A stretch of DNA of 64,000 bases from contig CP064968.1 of NCBI GenBank assembly GCA_016699245.1, positions 219,386 through 283,385 on the forward strand, read 5' to 3'. The position numbers were made by a program, and so were the translations under genes. Shown piece after piece: positions 7,291 through 64,000 of the stretch. The notes beneath the pieces are model-generated. The model saw only the letters and a list, made by a program, of their open reading frames with translations, made no database searches and had not been told where the DNA came from. Within the stretch, counting starts at the first letter, position 1, and each line of letters opens with the position of its first letter. This DNA comes from Candidatus Kaiserbacteria bacterium. GTDB lineage: Bacteria; Patescibacteriota; Minisyncoccia; Phycocordibacterales; UBA918.

Positions 7291-8610
7291 CTATTGCGGA
7301 AGGTATACCATTGGATCTATGTACGCATCGGATGCTGCCACTGGCGTTGTTGCAGCACCACAGCTCGTGACTGCTTTTATTTCATTAAATTTGCGTACAG
7401 AAACTCCGGCCTTTGCATATACGGTGAAGTGTAAGTGGGGTCCAGTGGAGTAGCCGGTGTTGCCCGAGTAGCCAATAATCTCCCCTGTCGCAACTTGTTG
7501 CCCAGGAACAACGCTTATAACGCTCTGGTGTGCGTAGAGTGTTGATAGCCCGTTGGCATGATCGACGAGTGTCCACTTGCCCCATGAGTAACAGCCCGGG
7601 ACTGCATCAGTGTTGCCAGTTGCGCGCACCGTACCCGAAAGTGGTGCCATAATTTTTGATCCTGTTGGTACACCAAAGTCAACGCCTGGATGGTATGCGC
7701 GTCCACCGTAGACTGACGCGTTTTGCTTTGCAAATTCAGTACCACCAAAAAGTTGAGTGATTACTACGTTCGACACTGGCCAATTGAATACCTGTGTCCC
7801 ACGCGCAGGAATGGTGTTGGGGTCAAGAATAAATTGAAGTTTTGATTCAAAGTCACGCATCTCTTTCAGTACAGCGTCATACTCAGTCTTCTTAGCTTTA
7901 AGAAGTTTTTGATATTCAACTTCTTTGTTTTTAGTAGCAGACAGTAGCCTCGATTTTTGAGTTGAGTTGTCAACAAGCACTTCATTTTGATCACTATATT
8001 GCTCTTTAAGGCCAAGAAGCTGCTCGCGCTTGTGTGTTTGTGTTGCAAATTGTCCGCTCAGTAATTCTTTTTCAGCACTCAGGTCAGTAAGTTTTTCGCG
8101 CATGACAAGTCGCATTTGTTCGAGCTCATCGATGCGTCCCCAAAACTCTGAAACATTGTCATATTCTAGAAGTACTTCTATAAAAGATCGGTCGTCCGTC
8201 TCACTGAGCATTTGAATTGTTTCGCTTACGGCTCTTTGATTGAGTGTGATACTTGCCTCGGTGACATCTATCTCGAGAGCAAGTTTGTCAATTTCCAAAT
8301 CAGTAGCGCCGATTTTGTTTTGGGTGTACTTAATATCAGACTGTACTTTTTTTCGTTCAAGCTCGAGAGACGAAATTGCTTTTTGAAGAGTATTTTTTGT
8401 ACCGCCCACTTTTTTAAGCTCGGTTTGATACCCGGCAATTTCCTGCTCGATTTCTTTTAGACGAGAGTTACGCTCGTTGATTTCAGTTTGGAGCACCTCC
8501 GCCTCAGTAGCCGCATGTGTAATAGGAAGACTCACAGAAAAGAGTACACTTACCATGAGTAGGTGTACACAGACAGAATTAAAAAAAGCAATGAATGAGG
8601 GTTTTCGCAT
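7291..8610 (-). CDS. M23 family metallopeptidase with N-terminal coiled-coil (EnvC-like murein hydrolase activator/peptidase)
   Basis: Long heptad-rich N-terminal half; C-terminal HPGVDF...HLHF M23 zinc-site motifs intact. Confidence 0.8.
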   Translation of the reverse strand: MRKPSFIAFFNSVCVHLLMVSVLFSVSLPITHAATEAEVLQTEINERNSRLKEIEQEIAGYQTELKKVGGTKNTLQKAISSLELERKKVQSDIKYTQNKIGATDLEIDKLALEIDVTEASITLNQRAVSETIQMLSETDDRSFIEVLLEYDNVSEFWGRIDELEQMRLVMREKLTDLSAEKELLSGQFATQTHKREQLLGLKEQYSDQNEVLVDNSTQKSRLLSATKNKEVEYQKLLKAKKTEYDAVLKEMRDFESKLQFILDPNTIPARGTQVFNWPVSNVVITQLFGGTEFAKQNASVYGGRAYHPGVDFGVPTGSKIMAPLSGTVRATGNTDAVPGCYSWGKWTLVDHANGLSTLYAHQSVISVVPGQQVATGEIIGYSGNTGYSTGPHLHFTVYAKAGVSVRKFNEIKAVTSCGAATTPVAASDAYIDPMVYLPQ

Positions 8611-15893: not shown

Positions 15894-16799
15894 TTAATGA
15901 ACAACGTTACATGACATATCCTTTTTAGCCCCGTCTATGGTTATGGGGACACGTTCACCCTTAAATATTCCATCTGCTGTAAAAGTAACTCCCCAAGTAA
16001 AACGCGAGTGCTCAGCAGGACAAATTCCAAAAGATGGATCAATTCCTGAAACTCTAAATTGGCTCGCACCACCTTTTGGAAAGATCACCTCATCAACTAA
16101 AGGTTTTGCATTCTTATAAAAAACAAACGAATCACCGTCCCAAATATCAACTTGGTATTCTTTTCCGAGTGCACTAATATCCCAAATAGGAATTCTCACA
16201 CTATTAAACTTCGGGCTTCCATCAAAGGCTCGCCAGATGTAGCCAACAGTAATATTTGATCCGAGTTGCCTCTCGCTTATAACTAATTCATTAATAGAAT
16301 TCTGAACTGTTTCATCAAAAATTATAGTGGATGTAGATATTGCCTCTGTTTCATTTTGTTCTTTCGAAATTGTAGATTCCTTTTTTTGAACAACGGGTTT
16401 ATCCATCGGTAACTCTGTTACAACTTTTTTCGATATAGAATTTTGAACTGTTTCATCAGTAACTATTGTTGATGTAGATACTGCCTCTGTTCTATTTTGT
16501 TCTTTTGTAATTGTAGATTCTCTCGTTTGAACAATGGGTTCATCCATTGGTAACTTTTCTACAACTTTTTCTGATGTTGTCTCATTAGAGTCATCTTGTC
16601 CTGAAAAATTTTGCTGTGTATTCGGTGTTACCGTGATTTCTGTTTGTGTATCCTTAGTGAAGATAAAATATATTAAAATCACTCCAAAAATTATTGCAGT
16701 AAGAAGGATTATCTGAACTAGATTTTTCATTTGATCCAATTTTACCACGAGCACGGCAATCAGAGTGCGCATCTTTCCCCATCGTATTGCATAGGTCAT
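15894..16799 (-). CDS. Hypothetical membrane-anchored/secreted protein with ~48-aa internal tandem repeat
   Basis: N-terminal TM; two ~144-bp DNA repeats (about 16287-16575) encode a repeated T/S/E-rich module. Confidence 0.45.
   Translation of the reverse strand: MTYAIRWGKMRTLIAVLVVKLDQMKNLVQIILLTAIIFGVILIYFIFTKDTQTEITVTPNTQQNFSGQDDSNETTSEKVVEKLPMDEPIVQTRESTITKEQNRTEAVSTSTIVTDETVQNSISKKVVTELPMDKPVVQKKESTISKEQNETEAISTSTIIFDETVQNSINELVISERQLGSNITVGYIWRAFDGSPKFNSVRIPIWDISALGKEYQVDIWDGDSFVFYKNAKPLVDEVIFPKGGASQFRVSGIDPSFGICPAEHSRFTWGVTFTADGIFKGERVPITIDGAKKDMSCNVVH
16287..16575. repeat. Intragenic tandem repeat, 2 x ~144 bp, ~80% identical
   Basis: Read directly in DNA and in the repeated peptide VVEKLPMDEPIVQ.../VVTELPMDKPVVQ... 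Confidence 0.55.
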
Positions 16800-28179: not shown

Positions 28180-28228
28180 AAAATAAGTGTACGTTGTTTA
28201 TTTTAAATTACAATGATCGAATCAAACG

Positions 28229-28333
28229 TTACACAAAAAACAGAGCAACAAGCGGGAGGATGAGCCACCAGAAGAAGTTTTCTGTGGGGGCAAAGAGAGA
28301 CTGAATAGGAGTGCCTGGGGTAATGATTTCGGT
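28229..28333. repeat. Direct repeat copy 1 (105 bp, ~97% identical to 28881-28985): a displaced duplicate of the 3' end of the membrane-protein gene
   Basis: Read directly: ACACAAAAAACAGAGCAACAAG[C/T]GGGAGGATGAGCCACCAGAAGAAGTTTTCTGTGGGGGC[A/G]AAGAGAGACTGAATAGGAGTGCCTGGGGTAATGATTTCGGT. Confidence 0.8.
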
Positions 28334-28410
28334 CATGGCATTCACAAGCCTATATTACATTTTGACATACAGCCCTTCTCTGGTATTATATACATACATT
28401 TGGCATTAGC

Positions 28411-28430
28411 CACGTCCCCCGCCCGCAAGG
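28411..28430. terminator. GC hairpin CCCCGCCC-GCAA-GGGCGGGG immediately past the toxin-like gene stop
   Basis: Read directly; followed by ATTTAT on the plus strand. Confidence 0.45.
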
Positions 28431-28443
28431 GCGGGGATTTATG

Positions 28444-28842
28444 TTATATACCCAGTACTTTCCCTAGCTGGTCTTGAACTTTTTTAAAATCGATTGAATC
28501 AAGAGTCCCGATCCTTTTATCAAGTCTTCTATAATCGATATATCGAACTTGCGCAACATTTGCAGTGTTTTTTAACCCATCACTATGAGTTACATCAACA
28601 TACCATGATCCAGAATTTGATTTTGTAGAAAGTGGTACTCCTATAAATGATGTCTGTGAAAGTTTTTTTATAACCAAAACAGGACGTCTAAAAAATAGAT
28701 TTTTACCACACTCTTCAGAACCAACATTTACTCCAAACGTACACCACCATATTTCTCTGTCCTTAAAGAGCGGAGGTTTGTGCGAGTAGGTGTCAACATT
28801 CTTCTTGATAGTATTCCATTCATTAAATTGCTTTTTGTACAT
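28444..28842 (-). CDS. MazF/PemK-like (CcdB/MazF fold) toxin-like protein, orphan (no antitoxin ORF seen)
   Basis: EIWWCTFGVNVGSEECGKNLFFRRPVLVIKK...IGVPLSTKS matches the PemK/MazF pattern (W.v.F.p..GsE...RP.lVis...vvP.Ts). Confidence 0.5.
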   Translation of the reverse strand: MYKKQFNEWNTIKKNVDTYSHKPPLFKDREIWWCTFGVNVGSEECGKNLFFRRPVLVIKKLSQTSFIGVPLSTKSNSGSWYVDVTHSDGLKNTANVAQVRYIDYRRLDKRIGTLDSIDFKKVQDQLGKVLGI

Positions 28843-28880
28843 ATGAAAATATTATTTGCTTGAGTGAATATTTTTAATCA

Positions 28881-29360
28881 TTACACAAAAAACAGAGCAA
28901 CAAGTGGGAGGATGAGCCACCAGAAGAAGTTTTCTGTGGGGGCGAAGAGAGACTGAATAGGAGTGCCTGGGGTAATGATTTCGGTTACGGGGAGCGCGTG
29001 AAAACTAAATATCATGACAAGTATGGTACCCATGGCCGCGAGGAGTAGTTTTTTACCAAAGCGATGAAAGGCAGGCTCATAATCGTCGCCCGGAATATGG
29101 CGACGAAAAAGAAGTGTACCTACGACTACAAATGCAAGAAAGATGAGAATTTTTGCTATAGCGGCGCCGTCCCCCTCCCCCTGTGCTACTTGCTCATAGT
29201 ATGGAAATTTTATGGAGATAAGAAGTGCGAGGTAGAGAGCAAGAATTACATTAATGAGTGCATAACGCCCTCTTGCCATGGCATAAAAAAGAAGTACACC
29301 AAAAACCGAAATCATAAATACAGATTCCTTGAGTAGTGTGATGATGTCTTCAGGATTCAC
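28881..29360 (-). CDS. Hypothetical integral membrane protein
   Basis: 4 TM helices; its last ~35 codons form direct repeat copy 2 (28881-28985). Confidence 0.45.
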   Translation of the reverse strand: MNPEDIITLLKESVFMISVFGVLLFYAMARGRYALINVILALYLALLISIKFPYYEQVAQGEGDGAAIAKILIFLAFVVVGTLLFRRHIPGDDYEPAFHRFGKKLLLAAMGTILVMIFSFHALPVTEIITPGTPIQSLFAPTENFFWWLILPLVALFFV

Positions 29361-33760: not shown

Positions 33761-34037
33761 ATGAGCGTGAGCGACTATATTTTTTGAGGCCTTCACTTTT
33801 TTATCTCCCCAGAGAAAAAAGTTAAGAAGCGACTGAACTTTGCAGAATCCAGAATATCTCCCATACCAATGACTCATACTCAGATGAGCGTGAGCGACTA
33901 TATTTTTTGAGGCCTTCACTTTTTTATCTCCCCAGAGAAAAAAGTTAAGAAGCGACTGAACTTTGCAGAATCCAGAATATCTCCCATACCAATGACTCAT
34001 ACTCAGATGAGCGTGAGCGACTATATTTTTTGAGGCC
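33761..34037. repeat. Perfect tandem duplication of a 123-bp unit (2.25 copies), intergenic
   Basis: Unit ATGAGCGTGAGCGACTATATTTTTTGAGGCCTTCAC...CAATGACTCATACTCAG repeated at 33761, 33884 and partially at 34007 with 100% identity. Confidence 0.85.
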
Positions 34038-56599: not shown

Positions 56600-56630
56600 A
56601 ATATATAAATTGTGTGCTTATTTTGGGAAA

Positions 56631-56900
56631 AGTAAAGAACCCAACTCCGGAGGAGTTGGACCAGGGGTTCTTTGCTAGCATAGGAATCGGCCACCGCCGA
56701 TGCTATTTTTATGTCGCTAAGCGCGACGGACTAGTAAAGAACCACACTCTGAAAGAGTATGACCAGGGTTCTTTGCTAGCATAGGAATCGGCCACCGCCG
56801 ATGCATTTTTTATGTCGCTAAGCGCGACAGACTAGTAAAGAACCCAACACTCAAAAGTGTAGGACCGGGGGTTCTTTGTTAGTAACTGAAGTCATTTTTA
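56631..56900. repeat. Array of three ~101-bp structured units (A 56631-56732, B 56733-56833, C 56834-~56900): variable hairpin + conserved terminator-like hairpin
   Basis: Each unit = AGTAAAGAACC + variable palindromic ~17 nt + ACCAGGGGTTCTTT, then (A, B) GCTAGCATAGGAATCGGCCACCGCCGATGCTATTTTT and GTCGCTAAGCGCGAC. The variable tips are each self-complementary. Confidence 0.75.
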
Positions 56901-60041: not shown

Positions 60042-60335
60042 TCATTTCTTTTTCTTTCTTGCTCCCTGTGATTTCTTTTTCTTTCTTGCTCCCTGTGATT
60101 TCACGAGTGTTTCTTTTTCTTCTTTTTTTAGTTTCTTGAGTTGATGTTCGCGCACCTGTGCCTCGCTCCGCGAGGCACAGGACTCCACATACACCACACT
60201 TATGGGAATTTTAGCCTTCGTATACTTCGCCCCTACCTTCCCCTCTTTGTGCTCTTTAAAGCGACGCTCCACATCAGTCGTCGCTCCCGTATAGAGTGAC
60301 CCATCGCTACAGCGAATCATGTATACCAACCACAT
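60042..60335 (-). CDS. GIY-YIG nuclease-family small protein with duplicated basic C-terminal tail
   Basis: LVYMIRCSDGSLYTGATTDVERRFKEH (GIY-YIG core); C-terminal SQGARKKKK x2 from a 27-bp tandem DNA repeat (60045-60098). Confidence 0.6.
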   Translation of the reverse strand: MWLVYMIRCSDGSLYTGATTDVERRFKEHKEGKVGAKYTKAKIPISVVYVESCASRSEAQVREHQLKKLKKEEKETLVKSQGARKKKKSQGARKKKK

Positions 60336-60425
60336 AGTTAATTTGAAATAAATCTTTAAAGTGTTACTATATTTCTACCTACCTAAAAAAGTGTTAGCCG
60401 CACTTTTGCTTTGGGCAAATGGCTA

Positions 60426-60506
60426 CCACGGGACACTGGATGATGGGTTCTAGTATTGGCGAGAGAACGAACCCGCAAGATTAACCAGTTAATCCCGTGG
60501 TTTTTT
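60426..60506 (+). ncRNA. Candidate small structured RNA / compound terminator
   Basis: 8-bp closing helix CCACGGGA...TCCCGTGG enclosing GGGTTC...GAACCC and TTAA-CCAG-TTAA hairpins, followed by TTTTTT; intergenic between GIY-YIG and ychF. Confidence 0.3.
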
Positions 60507-60507
60507 A

Positions 60508-61609
60508 TTACCCAATCATGAACTCAATTACATCACCATCCTTCACGATGTACTCCTTTCCTTCGGTACGGAGTTTGCCCTGCTCGCGTGCTTTCGCGAG
60601 AGAACCACAGGTGACGAGGTCTTCAAAGGCCACTACCTGTGCGCGTATGTATCGTGTTTTAAAATCAGTATGAATAGCCGCACCTGCCTCCAGGGCCCGT
60701 GGCACCATGACGTACGGTCCACGCATGCGTCTCCTTTTCTCCTGTGGTGAAATACGACATGAGCCCGAGACGGTGATAGCACGCGCGAATGAGTGAGTCG
60801 ATTCCAGAATCAAGGGTCGCATACTCGCGTCTAAATTCTGTCTTTTCATCTTCTTCCAAATCCTTCAATTCATGCTCTACACCCGCGTCAATGAGCACAT
60901 ACTCCGAGCCGGTGCTTTCCATAAAGTCCATGAGTTCTGTCCACCTATCATCATTGGTCTCATCAAAGTTGTATGCGCCATGCATTTTATTGAGCACATA
61001 GAGTATATGCTTCATGGTGAGGAGGTGGAGGTGTTGAATAGCCTGTGCTTCCCCATCAGCAAAATCAAATGAGCGTGCAAGTTGCCCTGCTTCAAGATGC
61101 CTAATGAGTCTTTCAAGCACATCCTTCTCCTTTTGCGCATCTTTGTCTCCACGTCGCGCATCCTTTTCCACATTTCCTAAACGCTTAGAGACCGTCTCGG
61201 TGTCCGCCATCACGAGTTCGAGATTAATCACTTCAATGTCGCTCATGGGGTCCACTGCGCCATTTACATGGATGATGTCCTGATCTTCAAAGATTCGTAC
61301 TACTTCCGCAATCATGTCGGTCTCGCGAATATTGGCAAGGAATTTGTTCCCAAGCCCTTCCCCTGAAGACGCACCTTTTACAAGACCCGCAATATCTACA
61401 AATTCAATAATCGCCGGAATAATTTTCTGTGAACTAGAAATTTTAGAGAGTGTCTCAAGCCGATGGTCGGGCACCGCCACCACACCCACTGATGGATCAA
61501 TAGTACAGAATGGATAGTTTTCTGCGGGGACGGCGTTTTTAGTAAGTGCATTAAAAAGTGTCGATTTTCCGACATTTGGTAACCCAACAATTCCGACTGA
61601 TAACGACAT
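60508..61609 (-). CDS. ychF: Ribosome-binding ATPase YchF (OLA1), apparent frameshift near 60700-60720 separating the G-domain and TGS-domain frames
   Basis: N-terminal [18 protein letters not shown]; C-terminal TGS region (AAIHTDF...GDVIEF) is in the overlapping -1 frame (ORFs 60665-61609 and 60508-60849). Confidence 0.7.
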
Positions 61610-61738
61610 AATATTTTATTTTTGAAGCAAATTAGAAGACAAAGATTCCCTACTGTATATAATAGTGCCTAGAGTACCAGATTTTCAAGTCTTTTCAAAG
61701 AAATGATGTCATCAACACTATGATCCTTACAAAAATTG

Positions 61739-61768
61739 CTTGACATGTAAAGTATCTATGACATAATA
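61739..61768 (+). promoter_or_regulatory. Sigma-70-like promoter (TTGACA-17 bp-ATAATA) for gene 61855-62304
   Basis: Read directly; AAGGAG RBS 8 nt before the ATG. Confidence 0.45.
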
Positions 61769-61854
61769 AATTTGCTGTTCTTCATATAGGTTACTGAGTT
61801 CATCTGGCATGGTGTCAGCGGAATTGAGTAGCAACATTCTAAGGAGTTATTTTC

Positions 61855-62304
61855 ATGAGCGCATTAAAATCGTGCTTAGCGGTAGCCATTGGCACTGCTA
61901 TTGGCTCAGTTGCTGGCTGCGGAGCCGTTGTCTTATTTTTGATTTTCTCCGGTAACTCGTCAGTGATGGTAGAGGAAAATTTTACTGTCATCTCCAACAA
62001 AGTTGCTGGTGCTCCAATCAGCATTAACTGTTCGATCATCTCGCCACTATTTGGCTTACCTCTCGAAAGAAAAGCTCAGTGGGTTGTGAAAGGTAGTGGG
62101 CACCATGGTTCAGTTGACTTCGGCGGTGGTGCTATTGTTTCCATACAGCATCATTGGAGTACTGTTGGAGGCCTGTTTCAATCCTTGTCCAGTGACTACA
62201 TCATTGTGAAAGGCTATTCCGGTTCATACAATCAAATAGTTGACGATGATGAGACAGGTCGCTTAGTAGTCAAGGCGTGTCTATCTAAAGTCAATGTGCT
62301 GTAG
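61855..62304 (+). CDS. Hypothetical secreted/lipoprotein-like protein (149 aa)
   Basis: N-terminal hydrophobic segment with ...AGCGA; G/S-rich; own promoter and terminator. Confidence 0.4.
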   Translation: MSALKSCLAVAIGTAIGSVAGCGAVVLFLIFSGNSSVMVEENFTVISNKVAGAPISINCSIISPLFGLPLERKAQWVVKGSGHHGSVDFGGGAIVSIQHHWSTVGGLFQSLSSDYIIVKGYSGSYNQIVDDDETGRLVVKACLSKVNVL

Positions 62305-62330
62305 TCACTGTCGCACTCCGCCCTGCCCTA

Positions 62331-62365
62331 CCCCACTGAAGAATCTTTCTTCAGTGGGGCTTTTA
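62331..62365 (+). terminator. Intrinsic terminator (CCCCACTGAAG...CTTCAGTGGGGCTTTT)
   Basis: 11-bp stem with T-run. Confidence 0.7.
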
Positions 62366-62413
62366 GATTTTCCGAAATTTGGCAACCCTACAATTCCGAC
62401 TCATAGTGACTCA
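62366..62413. repeat. Degenerate duplicate (~85% identical) of the ychF 5' end/RBS region (compare 61563-61609)
   Basis: GATTTTCCGAAATTTGGCAACCCTACAATTCCGACTCATAGTGACTCAT vs GATTTTCCGACATTTGGTAACCCAACAATTCCGACTGATAACGACAT. Confidence 0.65.
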
Positions 62414-62477
62414 TTTTTATGAGTGAATACGAATTAGAAAAATAGAAATACTCTTGTGGTAGACATAATTTGTTAAT

Positions 62478-63344
62478 TTATGAGCGCTTGTAGTCATCCT
62501 CGTACCGCTTGATATCATCCTCTCCAGTATATTTACCTGACTGCACTTCAATAATGACGAGGGGGTCGGTATGAGCATTTGAGAGGCGGTGGATGTGGTC
62601 TTTTGGGACAAAACAACTTTCATTCTCTCGAATGATTCGGTGTCCGATGTGTGATGGATCCTGCTTTTCACGAATTTCTACACTCGCTACTCCCGAAACA
62701 ACCACCCAATGTTCACTTCGGTGTTCATGACTCTGAAGACTTAGTCGTGCACCAGGGTTTACAATAATCTTTTTTACCTTGAACTGTGGCTTGTCCTCGA
62801 GTACGTAATACACTCCCCATGGTCGTGCGCCGACTTCAATGTACTCTTCCTCGCGATACTCAGCAGGCATTTCTGCAATCTTTTTGGTTATGTCTGCCTC
62901 ATCTGCTTTGTTGGCGATATTTTGAACATATGATGAACTATTGTGAGTCTTTGCGCCGAGACCATCGACAATTTGAACACCATATTTTTCAAGAATAGCG
63001 CGCTCTGGAATCTCGTATGCAAATCTATCACCACCTTTTGTAAATATAATTTCATCAACATCATCACGTTCACGAAGTTCTTTGAGTATTTTTTGCAATG
63101 TATCACAGACACTTGGTGTAGTGTCTATTGAAAGGATGGCGCGGTCAACCATTTTTAATGAATCAACTACTCTAAGACGAAATTGTTCATCTTGAAAACT
63201 TGGGACACCCCGCTTGAGTACTGCCTGATGATCGTTGTTTACAATCACCCACAGTTCATCAGCAAGTTGCTTGGAAAGTTCGAGACAGTCTATATGCCCC
63301 GGATGAAGGGGGTTAGCGTATACCGATGTGATAGCGATTTTCAT
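62478..63344 (-). CDS. Fusion of a cytidylyltransferase-like (HxGH) nucleotidyltransferase domain and a C-terminal cupin domain
   Basis: N-terminal ANPLHPGHIDCL resembles TagD/RfaE-domain-II HxGH; C-terminal GARLSLQSHEHRSEHWVVVSG cupin motif. Confidence 0.55.
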   Translation of the reverse strand: MKIAITSVYANPLHPGHIDCLELSKQLADELWVIVNNDHQAVLKRGVPSFQDEQFRLRVVDSLKMVDRAILSIDTTPSVCDTLQKILKELRERDDVDEIIFTKGGDRFAYEIPERAILEKYGVQIVDGLGAKTHNSSSYVQNIANKADEADITKKIAEMPAEYREEEYIEVGARPWGVYYVLEDKPQFKVKKIIVNPGARLSLQSHEHRSEHWVVVSGVASVEIREKQDPSHIGHRIIRENESCFVPKDHIHRLSNAHTDPLVIIEVQSGKYTGEDDIKRYEDDYKRS

Positions 63345-63558
63345 GAAGAAGACAATTATAGTTGCAACTGTGAAGAGATACGTTTTTTAACATGCATTTG
63401 ATTTTCGTACAAGTTTTGTTTGTAGTATACATTGCACACGGAATACATTTCTTGAAAACTCAGTACTATATTGATTGTGATAGACTGTTTGATTTTAGAA
63501 AAATTATATCTATACTGTATGTGGCGTTTTGCCACACACTACTTACGAGGAGACTATC

Positions 63559-64000
63559 GTGCGCAAGTCCAATGTTCTTCAGTACATTTTGATTTTGTTT
63601 GTTCTTAGTTTCAGCCACGCCACCTCTGCTGTCGAGGAGTCACTGGTATCTGAAGCAAATTCTGTTATCAAAGAAGCTGTTGAGGATTCTACCTCCGCAA
63701 CACATTTTGATGTTGAGACGATACCGGATGGATTCTCAATCTCAGTCGGCAAAGCTCAAAGTATTTGCTACTTCAGAAATGGTGTACCGCTCCACTGTGC
63801 GAAAATCTCTAGTGGGGCGCAGGGCCACAGAACCCCCACTGGGTACTTCAGTATAAAGAGCAAGGAGTTCATGCATTATTCGCGCAGATATAAGGACCAG
63901 AAAGGGAGGCCTGCTCCGATGCCGCGGAGTATGCATTTCCACGAACATTACTTCATCCACGAAGGAAAGTTGCCTGGACATCCAGCCTCGCATGGCTGCA
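63559..64000 (+). CDS. L,D-transpeptidase (YkuD domain), GTG start, 3'-truncated by window end
   Basis: GGAG RBS then GTG; signal peptide; ...HGTP...FHEHYFIHEGKLPGHPASHGC catalytic His/Cys motif. Confidence 0.6.
   Translation, partial: MRKSNVLQYILILFVLSFSHATSAVEESLVSEANSVIKEAVEDSTSATHFDVETIPDGFSISVGKAQSICYFRNGVPLHCAKISSGAQGHRTPTGYFSIKSKEFMHYSRRYKDQKGRPAPMPRSMHFHEHYFIHEGKLPGHPASHGC

Follow-up and report, generated by a model that had tools for sequence, protein, structure and literature searches.

The stretch of DNA analyzed here (the window) is a 64-kb segment of the genome of a Candidatus Kaiserbacteria bacterium. Near its end, the 5' region of ychF, the gene for a redox-regulated ATPase/GTPase, is present twice, and a small gene unit lies between the two copies. 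Read 5' to 3' on the minus strand, the locus comprises a divergently oriented YkuD-like gene, a cupin fusion gene, a leader with an upstream open reading frame (uORF), a stub of ychF, an opposite-strand transcription unit for a 149-amino-acid (149-aa) protein (ORF149), a ychF promoter-like site, a second leader, and ychF itself (Table 1). For comparison, loci from other genomes and from phage contigs were fetched and are labeled L followed by a number.

Table 1. Features at the 5' end of ychF in the window (ORF, open reading frame; nt, nucleotides; UTR, untranslated region; RBS, ribosome-binding site; an asterisk denotes a stop codon)
Feature	Position	Strand	Remarks
ychF (redox-regulated ATPase/GTPase)	60508..61609	minus	MMR_HSR1 and YchF-GTPase_C domains, split over two ORFs
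Inverted repeat TGTCG-GAAAAT-CGACA	61559..61574	minus	In Val-Gly-Lys-Ser-Thr codons; scored as hairpin
Proximal repeat copy	61563..61637	minus	Functional ychF nt 1-47 (61609..61563) plus 28-nt leader
ychF promoter-like site, TTGAAA-18-TATTAT	61657..61688	minus	Homologous to the ychF upstream sequence of L083-L086 and L101
ORF149 promoter, TTGACA-16-CATAAT	61740..61767	plus	TG-extended; kept in L089, L090, and L092
ORF149-family 5' UTR	61768..61854	plus	Hairpin CTGGCA-TGG-TGTCAG at 61804-61818; AAGGAG RBS
ORF149, 149 aa	61855..62304	plus	N-terminal membrane helix, ~110-aa beta-sheet domain, two invariant Cys
ORF149 intrinsic terminator	62331..62359	plus	13-bp stem and T tract; T tract abuts the stub
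Dead stub (distal copy of ychF nt 1-47)	62366..62414	minus	2-nt insertion after ATG, TCA>TGA stop, G37T
Lineage-typical ychF leader adjoining the stub	62415..62477	minus	Includes the uORF MSTTRVFLFF* (62466..62434)
Cytidylyltransferase/mannose-6-phosphate-isomerase-type cupin fusion gene	62478..63344	minus	Intact to the conserved C terminus
YkuD-like gene start (63559) and upstream region	63489..64000	plus, divergent	Orthologue of the gene directly upstream of L084 ychF

A repeat search recovered the duplicated ychF start, which a preliminary description of this DNA had placed at 61563-61609 and 62366-62413, as a direct repeat of 45 nt (61563-61607 versus 62366-62410; 39/45, 87%) with a spacing of 803. 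Gapped local alignment lengthens the repeat beyond what had been claimed, to 61563-61637 versus 62366-62439 (61/76), and its score lies 21 standard deviations above that of shuffled queries. The stub consists of a decayed ychF leader and codons 1 to 16. Its Ser-4 codon is replaced by TGA, two nucleotides are inserted after the ATG (62414-62412), and a further change turns Val into Phe. The preliminary description stated that this copy no longer encodes the YchF N terminus; 12 residues can still be read in one frame, preceded by the TGA, and the copy is a decayed ychF start, neither an unrelated sequence nor a chance match.

On its upstream side, the stub is joined to an intact, lineage-typical leader, and homology to orthologous ychF leaders reaches position ~62452 (81 to 83% to L085 and L088). 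The 10-codon uORF in this leader is intact, starts 11 nt past the stop codon of the cupin fusion gene, and encodes a peptide that is identical in L101 (5944-5976) and nearly identical in L107 and L110. The functional ychF copy has its own promoter and a shorter leader without the uORF; the region of its promoter-like site matches L101 over 29 nt at 93%. A 10-codon uORF precedes ychF in Kaiserbacteria, with MTGAEVFLF* as the counterpart in L085. The ychF start is repeated in the ATGTC of the uORF together with the 31 nt that precede it, and in L101 these sequences form 57-nt tandem units. The conserved uORF may be a leader peptide or the scar of an older duplication.

Both repeat copies carry two derived synonymous states, GTC at nt 15 and CCA at nt 33. 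Because these states are common to both copies and neither occurs in any of nine relatives (0/9), the copies appear to have arisen within this lineage. Overall identity to the same nine relatives (33-40/44 for both copies) is uninformative as to a foreign or native origin. Within the gene body, ychF is split into ORFs 60665..61609 and 60508..60849 by a +1 frameshift near 60676-60706 on the minus strand, where the window reads GGCCCTGGAGG and the relatives imply GGCCCTGAGG. This frameshift is either a long-read assembly error or the mark of a genuine pseudogene.

The gene unit between the copies is complete. All parts of the plus-strand module described earlier (promoter, RBS, 149-aa ORF, and terminator) were found, with the promoter spacing read here as 16 with CATAAT. 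A database search matched ORF149 only to the hypothetical protein IPH92_01335 of a Candidatus Kaiserbacteria metagenome-assembled genome, and the exact protein is absent from the contig collection searched. Exhaustive HMMER searches returned only three relatives of similar length (28 to 44% identity), giving a family of four members that all have the hydrophobic N-terminal helix and the two invariant cysteines. The AlphaFold model (predicted local distance difference test score of 76) comprises a helix at residues 2-32, a beta sheet, and a C-terminal helix; it has no fold match in the PDB at E<0.01. The lipoprotein-like character proposed for the protein was not borne out: the VAGC at residue 22 is not kept in the homologues, so that there is no conserved lipobox cysteine, and the profile search gave no Pfam or PHROG family.

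At the DNA level, the promoter, the ~85-nt leader with its hairpin, and the terminator are conserved across the ORF149 family. The 5' UTR (window 61768-61854; L089 20-101; L090 797-877; L092 137-222) looks better conserved than the coding region (25 to 40% identity at the protein level), and its 6-bp hairpin shows one G-U to G-C change and zero double compensatory changes. One homologue lies beside gdh, an M23 peptidase gene, gltX, and murG, in a block syntenic with 7.3-13.2 kb of the window, and another lies beside a tRNA-Leu gene. In L090/L091, the unit is bracketed by a 55-nt, 80% direct repeat (L090 632-686 versus 1312-1366) that corresponds to the terminator region of the upstream gene. 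ORF149 is a self-contained, movable gene unit.

Relatives whose YchF is 94 to 96% identical (the window protein is 96% identical to P0122) have a YkuD-type gene directly and divergently upstream of ychF, and ORF149, the stub, and the cupin gene are absent beside ychF there. ORF149 is missing from this position in the closest relatives and its homologues reside at other loci, in agreement with the preliminary description. The expected adjacency of the cupin fusion gene to ychF without the insert was seen in no relative; in L084, the YkuD-like gene occupies that place. In public data, the cupin gene was also sought directly upstream of ychF, and the top 120 matches of the cupin protein and those of YchF had no contig in common.

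L084 is the nearest relative by YchF, and its upstream gene is orthologous to the YkuD-like gene of the window (48% identity). Window positions 63590-63489 align to L084 306-405, and positions ~61722-61657 resemble the L084 promoter region in a comparison of the intergenic sequences made by eye rather than with an alignment program. Relative to L084, the intervening block 63488..61722, ~1.77 kb including the cupin gene, is specific to the window, and its far edge is the upstream region of the YkuD-like gene. The nearest homologue of the cupin gene (91% identity) sits in a glycosylation island, likewise after a YkuD gene, with a glycosyltransferase gene downstream. In other Kaiserbacteria, the genes found upstream of ychF are either those of a type I restriction system and a Panacea toxin-antitoxin pair or glycosylation genes; in L107-L109, the upstream neighbor is a type I restriction-modification cluster that has a helix-turn-helix (HTH)-Panacea antitoxin gene embedded in it and a 113-aa ORF beside that gene. 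This upstream flank is an accessory-gene hot spot that is hypervariable among Kaiserbacteria.

The arrangement recurs beyond this genome. When all fetched loci were screened by self-similarity, peptide, and Smith-Waterman searches, the order of ychF 5' stub, cargo, and intact ychF was found in 5 of ~44 Patescibacteria lineages, the window included, and in 0 of ~43 loci from other bacteria. The repeat in the window ends at nt 47 of ychF, directly after GGAAAATC, and encloses the ORF149 unit together with the spare promoter and leader. In L012, a 45/46 repeat begins exactly at the ATG and ends at nt 46, directly after GGCAAAT, and a KilA-N gene is packed between the stop codon of the stub ORF and the ychF ATG. 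The loci L101-L106, six from six different samples out of ten contigs on record for this protein, have a repeat from nt -9 to +48 and a boundary at nt 46-48; their cargo, an AAA_14/DUF4143 gene that has a promoter of its own, is followed by the ychF promoter and leader. L033 shows a ~80% repeat with a boundary at nt 41, an insert of only 80 nt, and copies 121 nt apart, and L009 has a 66/75 repeat (54 nt of leader and ~20 nt of coding sequence) with a boundary at ~nt 20 and two ORFs as cargo.

In three of these five cases (the window, L012, and the L101 group), the stub boundary falls within 2 nt, in the P-loop Gly-Lys-Ser codons, and the cargo is a single whole gene unit with no fragments of neighboring genes. 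The stubs of L012 and of the L101 type are contiguous with their local flanks and nearly identical to the ychF of their own genome. Two further repeats were set aside as candidates: the dispersed repeat of L004 represents two halves of an ABC-F gene, and that of L042 (7359-7480 versus 8091-8211) is a 122-nt, 82% copy of an internal part of a methyltransferase gene that lies just downstream of that gene, a gene-fragment relic without cargo.

The inverted repeat TGTCG-GAAAAT-CGACA has a 6-nt spacer, and the boundary at nt 47 coincides with the 3' edge of this spacer. The inverted repeat was considered as a selected hairpin or recombinase core and rejected. Val3/Ser3 codon complementarity is 19 versus 10 expected by plain shuffling, but 19 versus 16.9 (P=0.22) with GC class controlled. 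The inverted repeat therefore largely reflects the protein motif and codon usage.

The anatomy of the locus, the fact that close relatives lack it, and its repeated occurrence in four further lineages, two of them with the same boundary, are best accommodated by a site-directed insertion at ychF that replaced the end of the gene and that is now represented by a recombinase-less cassette of the cis-mobilizable element (CIME) type. We assign this reading a probability of about one half. A module of ~0.8 kb would have entered ychF at nt 47, inside the P-loop Gly-Lys-Ser codons. It would have brought with it the transcription unit of ORF149, which runs antisense to ychF, and after this a second ychF promoter and leader together with nt 1-47 of the gene. 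Once the module was in place, the body of ychF would read on from the copy that it supplied and be expressed from the module promoter. The distal 45 to 87 nt would be the original ychF start, which was pushed aside, remains attached to its leader, the uORF, and the cupin gene, and has decayed since. The agent may have been a recombinase acting in trans, encoded either by a related element (an integrase) or by the host (an Xer-type enzyme); alternatively, a circular cassette may have recombined through its ychF segment in a Campbell-type manner. We infer the direction of the event, the circular intermediate, and the enzyme.

That the boundary is shared and that the cargo is a clean single gene favors a site-directed event over random illegitimate joins. 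Several results weigh against it. None of the five inserts contains an integrase, transposase, or other recombinase, and a phmmer search with two tyrosine integrases gave zero matches in the 64-kb window. The seven cassettes have no common end motif beyond the shared ychF promoter and the ORF149-family leader. Just past the boundary on the stub side, the sequence is unlike the ychF half-site expected of a tyrosine-recombinase attL core, and the boundaries are not uniform, lying at nt ~20 and 41 besides 46-48. A classical integrase site is disfavored because there is no recombinase, no half-site similarity past the boundary, and two deviant boundaries. In addition, the spare promoter and leader look like what ordinarily precedes ychF in Kaiserbacteria and not like the DNA of a foreign element; the cupin gene is missing from L084 too, which calls for a second event; and no excised or empty-site form was found.

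The main rival is homology-anchored illegitimate recombination without a site-specific enzyme, which we consider possible, although clearly less probable than a site-directed insertion. DNA of a related strain, with ORF149 beside its own ychF promoter and start, would have been taken up or used as a repair template; one end would have recombined homologously inside ychF, and the other, the T tract past the ORF149 terminator, would have joined illegitimately at the A-run of the Gly-Lys codons, thereby duplicating the interval from the join to the start. Such an origin would account for a spare promoter, leader, and 5' end that correspond to a normal Kaiserbacteria ychF upstream region and for two repeat copies that are each other's closest relatives, and the junction between the terminator T tract and GGAAAATC hints at possible microhomology. 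It is also consistent with left boundaries, and some right ones, that vary, with the lack of a recombinase, and with the hypervariability upstream of ychF among Kaiserbacteria. It does not explain why the boundary falls within 2 nt in three independent lineages with unrelated cargo, nor why three cases have clean whole-gene cargo, as random joins should often leave gene fragments. The events described by de Vries and Wackernagel and by Prudhomme reportedly delete recipient DNA as a rule instead of duplicating it, which also counts against this alternative.

The stub could instead be a passenger, if the whole 1.77-kb block (63488..61722), comprising the cupin gene, leader, stub, and ORF149, entered between the YkuD-like gene and the ychF promoter from a donor with a truncated ychF and left the host ychF untouched. 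Exactly this block is missing in L084, where its flanks are adjacent, so that a single event would be enough, and the 91% homologue of the cupin gene sits in another island, also beside a YkuD gene. The two derived states that the stub and the functional copy carry are unique to this genome, though, and a donor with a truncated ychF would still be required, which only moves the question of origin. Together with the L101-type and L012 stubs, which run on without a break into the surrounding sequence and hardly differ from the ychF of the same genome (45/46 in L012), this makes a passenger stub improbable. The 5' region of ychF might also have been duplicated locally in tandem, through slippage or unequal crossing-over, and ORF149 inserted between the copies in a later, unrelated event. 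This would have precedents in the short leader and start tandem repeats of relatives (unit1 and unit2 of L101 with their 57-nt period, the uORF ATGTC that is like that of ychF, and the L033 copies 121 nt apart). The 80 nt between the L033 copies are unlike the sequence upstream of the stub, two events at one spot would be needed in each lineage, and the shared boundary would be left unexplained; we regard this course as very unlikely. Chance similarity or an assembly artifact is barely conceivable. The contig is metagenome-assembled, and the ychF frameshift hints at long-read errors, but a repeat score 21 standard deviations above shuffles argues against chance, a stub with its own substitutions and indel is not a collapsed or duplicated read, and the L101-type architecture was assembled independently in six contigs from six samples.

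Among described elements, the closest likeness is to islands that target gene 5' ends, and the mechanism had been called uncharacterized in terms that now appear too strong: the anatomy matches that of dusA/prfC islands (PMC4482086), and ychF is a published integration site (PMC11551731, PMC10383233). Islands at dusA replace the 5' end of the gene and leave the original 5' end as their outer border, and elements of this type have imperfect direct repeats at a conserved gene position (PMC4482086). In the dusA and prfC (SXT/R391) islands, as here, insertion occurs in the first codons of a conserved gene, a new 5' end with a promoter is supplied, and the old 5' end forms the outer border. At ychF, insertion at the same 5' coding position is seen in different hosts (nt 47, 46, and 46-48; also 41 and ~20), and a replacement 5' end is found together with a displaced copy that would be the original one if the event ran in the direction proposed. 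An element-encoded integrase beside the attachment (att) site is lacking, with only ORF149 between the repeats of the window. The dusA/prfC elements measure 10 to 100+ kb, carry their own tyrosine integrase beside att, have ~21-nt repeats, and have been demonstrated to excise, whereas the ychF inserts measure 0.7 to 1.6 kb and have one or two cargo genes, no recombinase, and repeats of 45 to 87 nt.

CIMEs are decayed integrative and conjugative or integrative and mobilizable elements that keep attL and attR and have lost their integration and transfer genes. Direct repeats and the lack of a recombinase are found at ychF as well, the repeats being putative att sites. Unlike a CIME, the L012 insert has a 45/46 repeat and cargo flush against both ends, and it looks like a unit that moved as such rather than a decayed large element.

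The target gene is also known from other mobile elements. In Actinomycetota, ychF serves as the integration site of pipolins that have large serine recombinases; in pneumococci, a satellite prophage enters upstream of the gene at a 26-bp att site (PMC11551731, PMC10383233). These phages, satellites, and pipolins have the target gene in common with the ychF inserts; they differ in that they belong to other phyla, are of full size, and have recombinases. In IMG/VR, several gut phage contigs of 33 to 60 kb have a tyrosine integrase gene (PF00589) 130 to 180 nt upstream of the ychF ATG. These contigs end within the first 72 nt of ychF, two of them at the Gly-Lys-Ser codons. In the phage contigs L121, L145, L147, L153, and L154, a direct repeat ATTGGTAC-N3-ATTGGTAC lies between the integrase gene and ychF (last 200 nt, towards ychF) and resembles arm-type integrase-binding sites, for which it is a candidate. 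The alignments of L121, L145, and L153 stop at nt 72 of ychF, and the end of L154 likewise lies 25 nt beyond the motif. Short motif matches outside ychF in the phage contigs occur in about the number expected by chance, as estimated from pattern specificity. Stubs at the far ends of phage contigs abutting ychF were looked for, and none was present within the stored stretches. At the ychF-proximal end of one gut phage contig (L099 99-916), a Panacea antitoxin gene lies beside a MazF-like toxin gene. Among the ~44 Patescibacteria loci, there was no related autonomous element with the same ychF target specificity.

Integrative mobile elements exploiting Xer (IMEX), such as the CTX phage, have no recombinase of their own; they carry a mimic of the chromosomal site and integrate at dif via host XerCD. 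The ychF inserts may be likened to them in the lack of a recombinase and in the boundary at the edge of the 6-nt spacer of TGTCG-GAAAAT-CGACA. They differ in that the ychF site lies within a coding gene instead of at dif, and the arms of its inverted repeat span just 5 bp and are dictated by the protein motif. Transposons and insertion sequences do not fit, as there is no transposase and the repeats are 41 to 87 nt and variable in length, in contrast to a fixed short target duplication. The inverted repeats found in 61300-62600 are limited to the stem of the ORF149 terminator and a single 14-nt pair inside the ORF149 unit; the ends of the insert have none. An integron gene cassette does not match either, since ORF149 has its own promoter and terminator and no attC-like site. 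What is unusual is that no recombinase is present and that the cargo is as small as one gene. The literature searched makes no mention of a single-gene form without a recombinase or of its repeated occurrence at the P-loop codons of ychF in Patescibacteria. The preliminary description of the insertion was largely right, and its interpretation is partly supported.

A second case in the window had been proposed at 28.2-29.0 kb, and as anatomy the comparison is valid. A 115-nt, 95% repeat (28224-28338 versus 28876-28990), which corresponds to the 3' end of a gene for a 159-aa membrane protein, brackets a PemK/MazF-like toxin gene (28444..28842, minus strand). This toxin gene has no adjoining antitoxin ORF in the window. 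Antisense to the toxin gene and immediately beyond its 3' end, the plus strand has a TTGACA-17-TATTAT site and, after it, a GC hairpin (~28386-28440). The suspected recurrence of gene units bracketed by a copy of a neighbor's end holds more widely, including the MazF cassette, the ORF149-family unit of L090/L091, and the ychF stubs of L009, L012, L033, and L101-L106. It is tempting to generalize that Patescibacteria harbor minimal recombinase-less cassettes, each a cargo unit with a spare ychF start, that home to ychF nt 46-48 and rebuild the gene via a host Xer-like enzyme, RecA, or a recombinase in trans, with the MazF and L090 cassettes following the same principle at other gene ends. We regard this generalization as doubtful.

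Downstream of ychF, a structured element of ~105 nt (window 60395-60500, plus strand) lies between the ychF stop codon and the start of a GIY-YIG gene and ends in a T run. Its minimum free energy is -40.8 kcal/mol (z -3.35), and it has no Rfam match; neither the window nor the gap between ychF and GIY-YIG matched an RNA family in an Rfam scan, and a scan for tRNA genes found none. Its homologue in L085 lies at 2751-2915, and the outer helix differs between the two by a compensatory change (CCACGGGA/TCCCGTGG versus CCACAGGA/TCCTGTGG). L083, L084, L086, L088, and L101 are without the element, and the GIY-YIG gene follows directly after ychF there. A GIY-YIG homing nuclease that cuts ychF was considered and rejected: the gene adjoins ychF downstream only in Kaiserbacteria, not in L009, L012, or L033. 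The window also contains other tandem repeats: a 123-nt unit in 2.25 copies (100% identity) within coding sequence at 33761-34037, three intergenic 101-nt units at 56626-56869, a 141-nt pair (80%) at 16272-16553, and, at 60058-60117, two 30-nt units within the 3' end of the GIY-YIG gene.

Bacteria of the candidate phyla radiation have tiny genomes, for which, to our knowledge, descriptions of mobile elements or of ways to acquire genes are few. The arrangement at ychF would represent a repeatable way for single accessory genes to enter beside an essential-type gene without inactivating it, with a cargo that ranges from a membrane protein and a KilA-N regulator to an AAA_14/DUF4143 ATPase and a MazF toxin. 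Phages and pipolins of other phyla share the 5' end of ychF as a hot spot. If the cassettes are not mobile, the stubs still serve as scars by which insertions can be dated and ordered. Should they prove to be mobile by themselves, they would rank with the smallest mobile units known to carry genes and would provide a practical marker of strain-level gene flow in uncultured bacteria.

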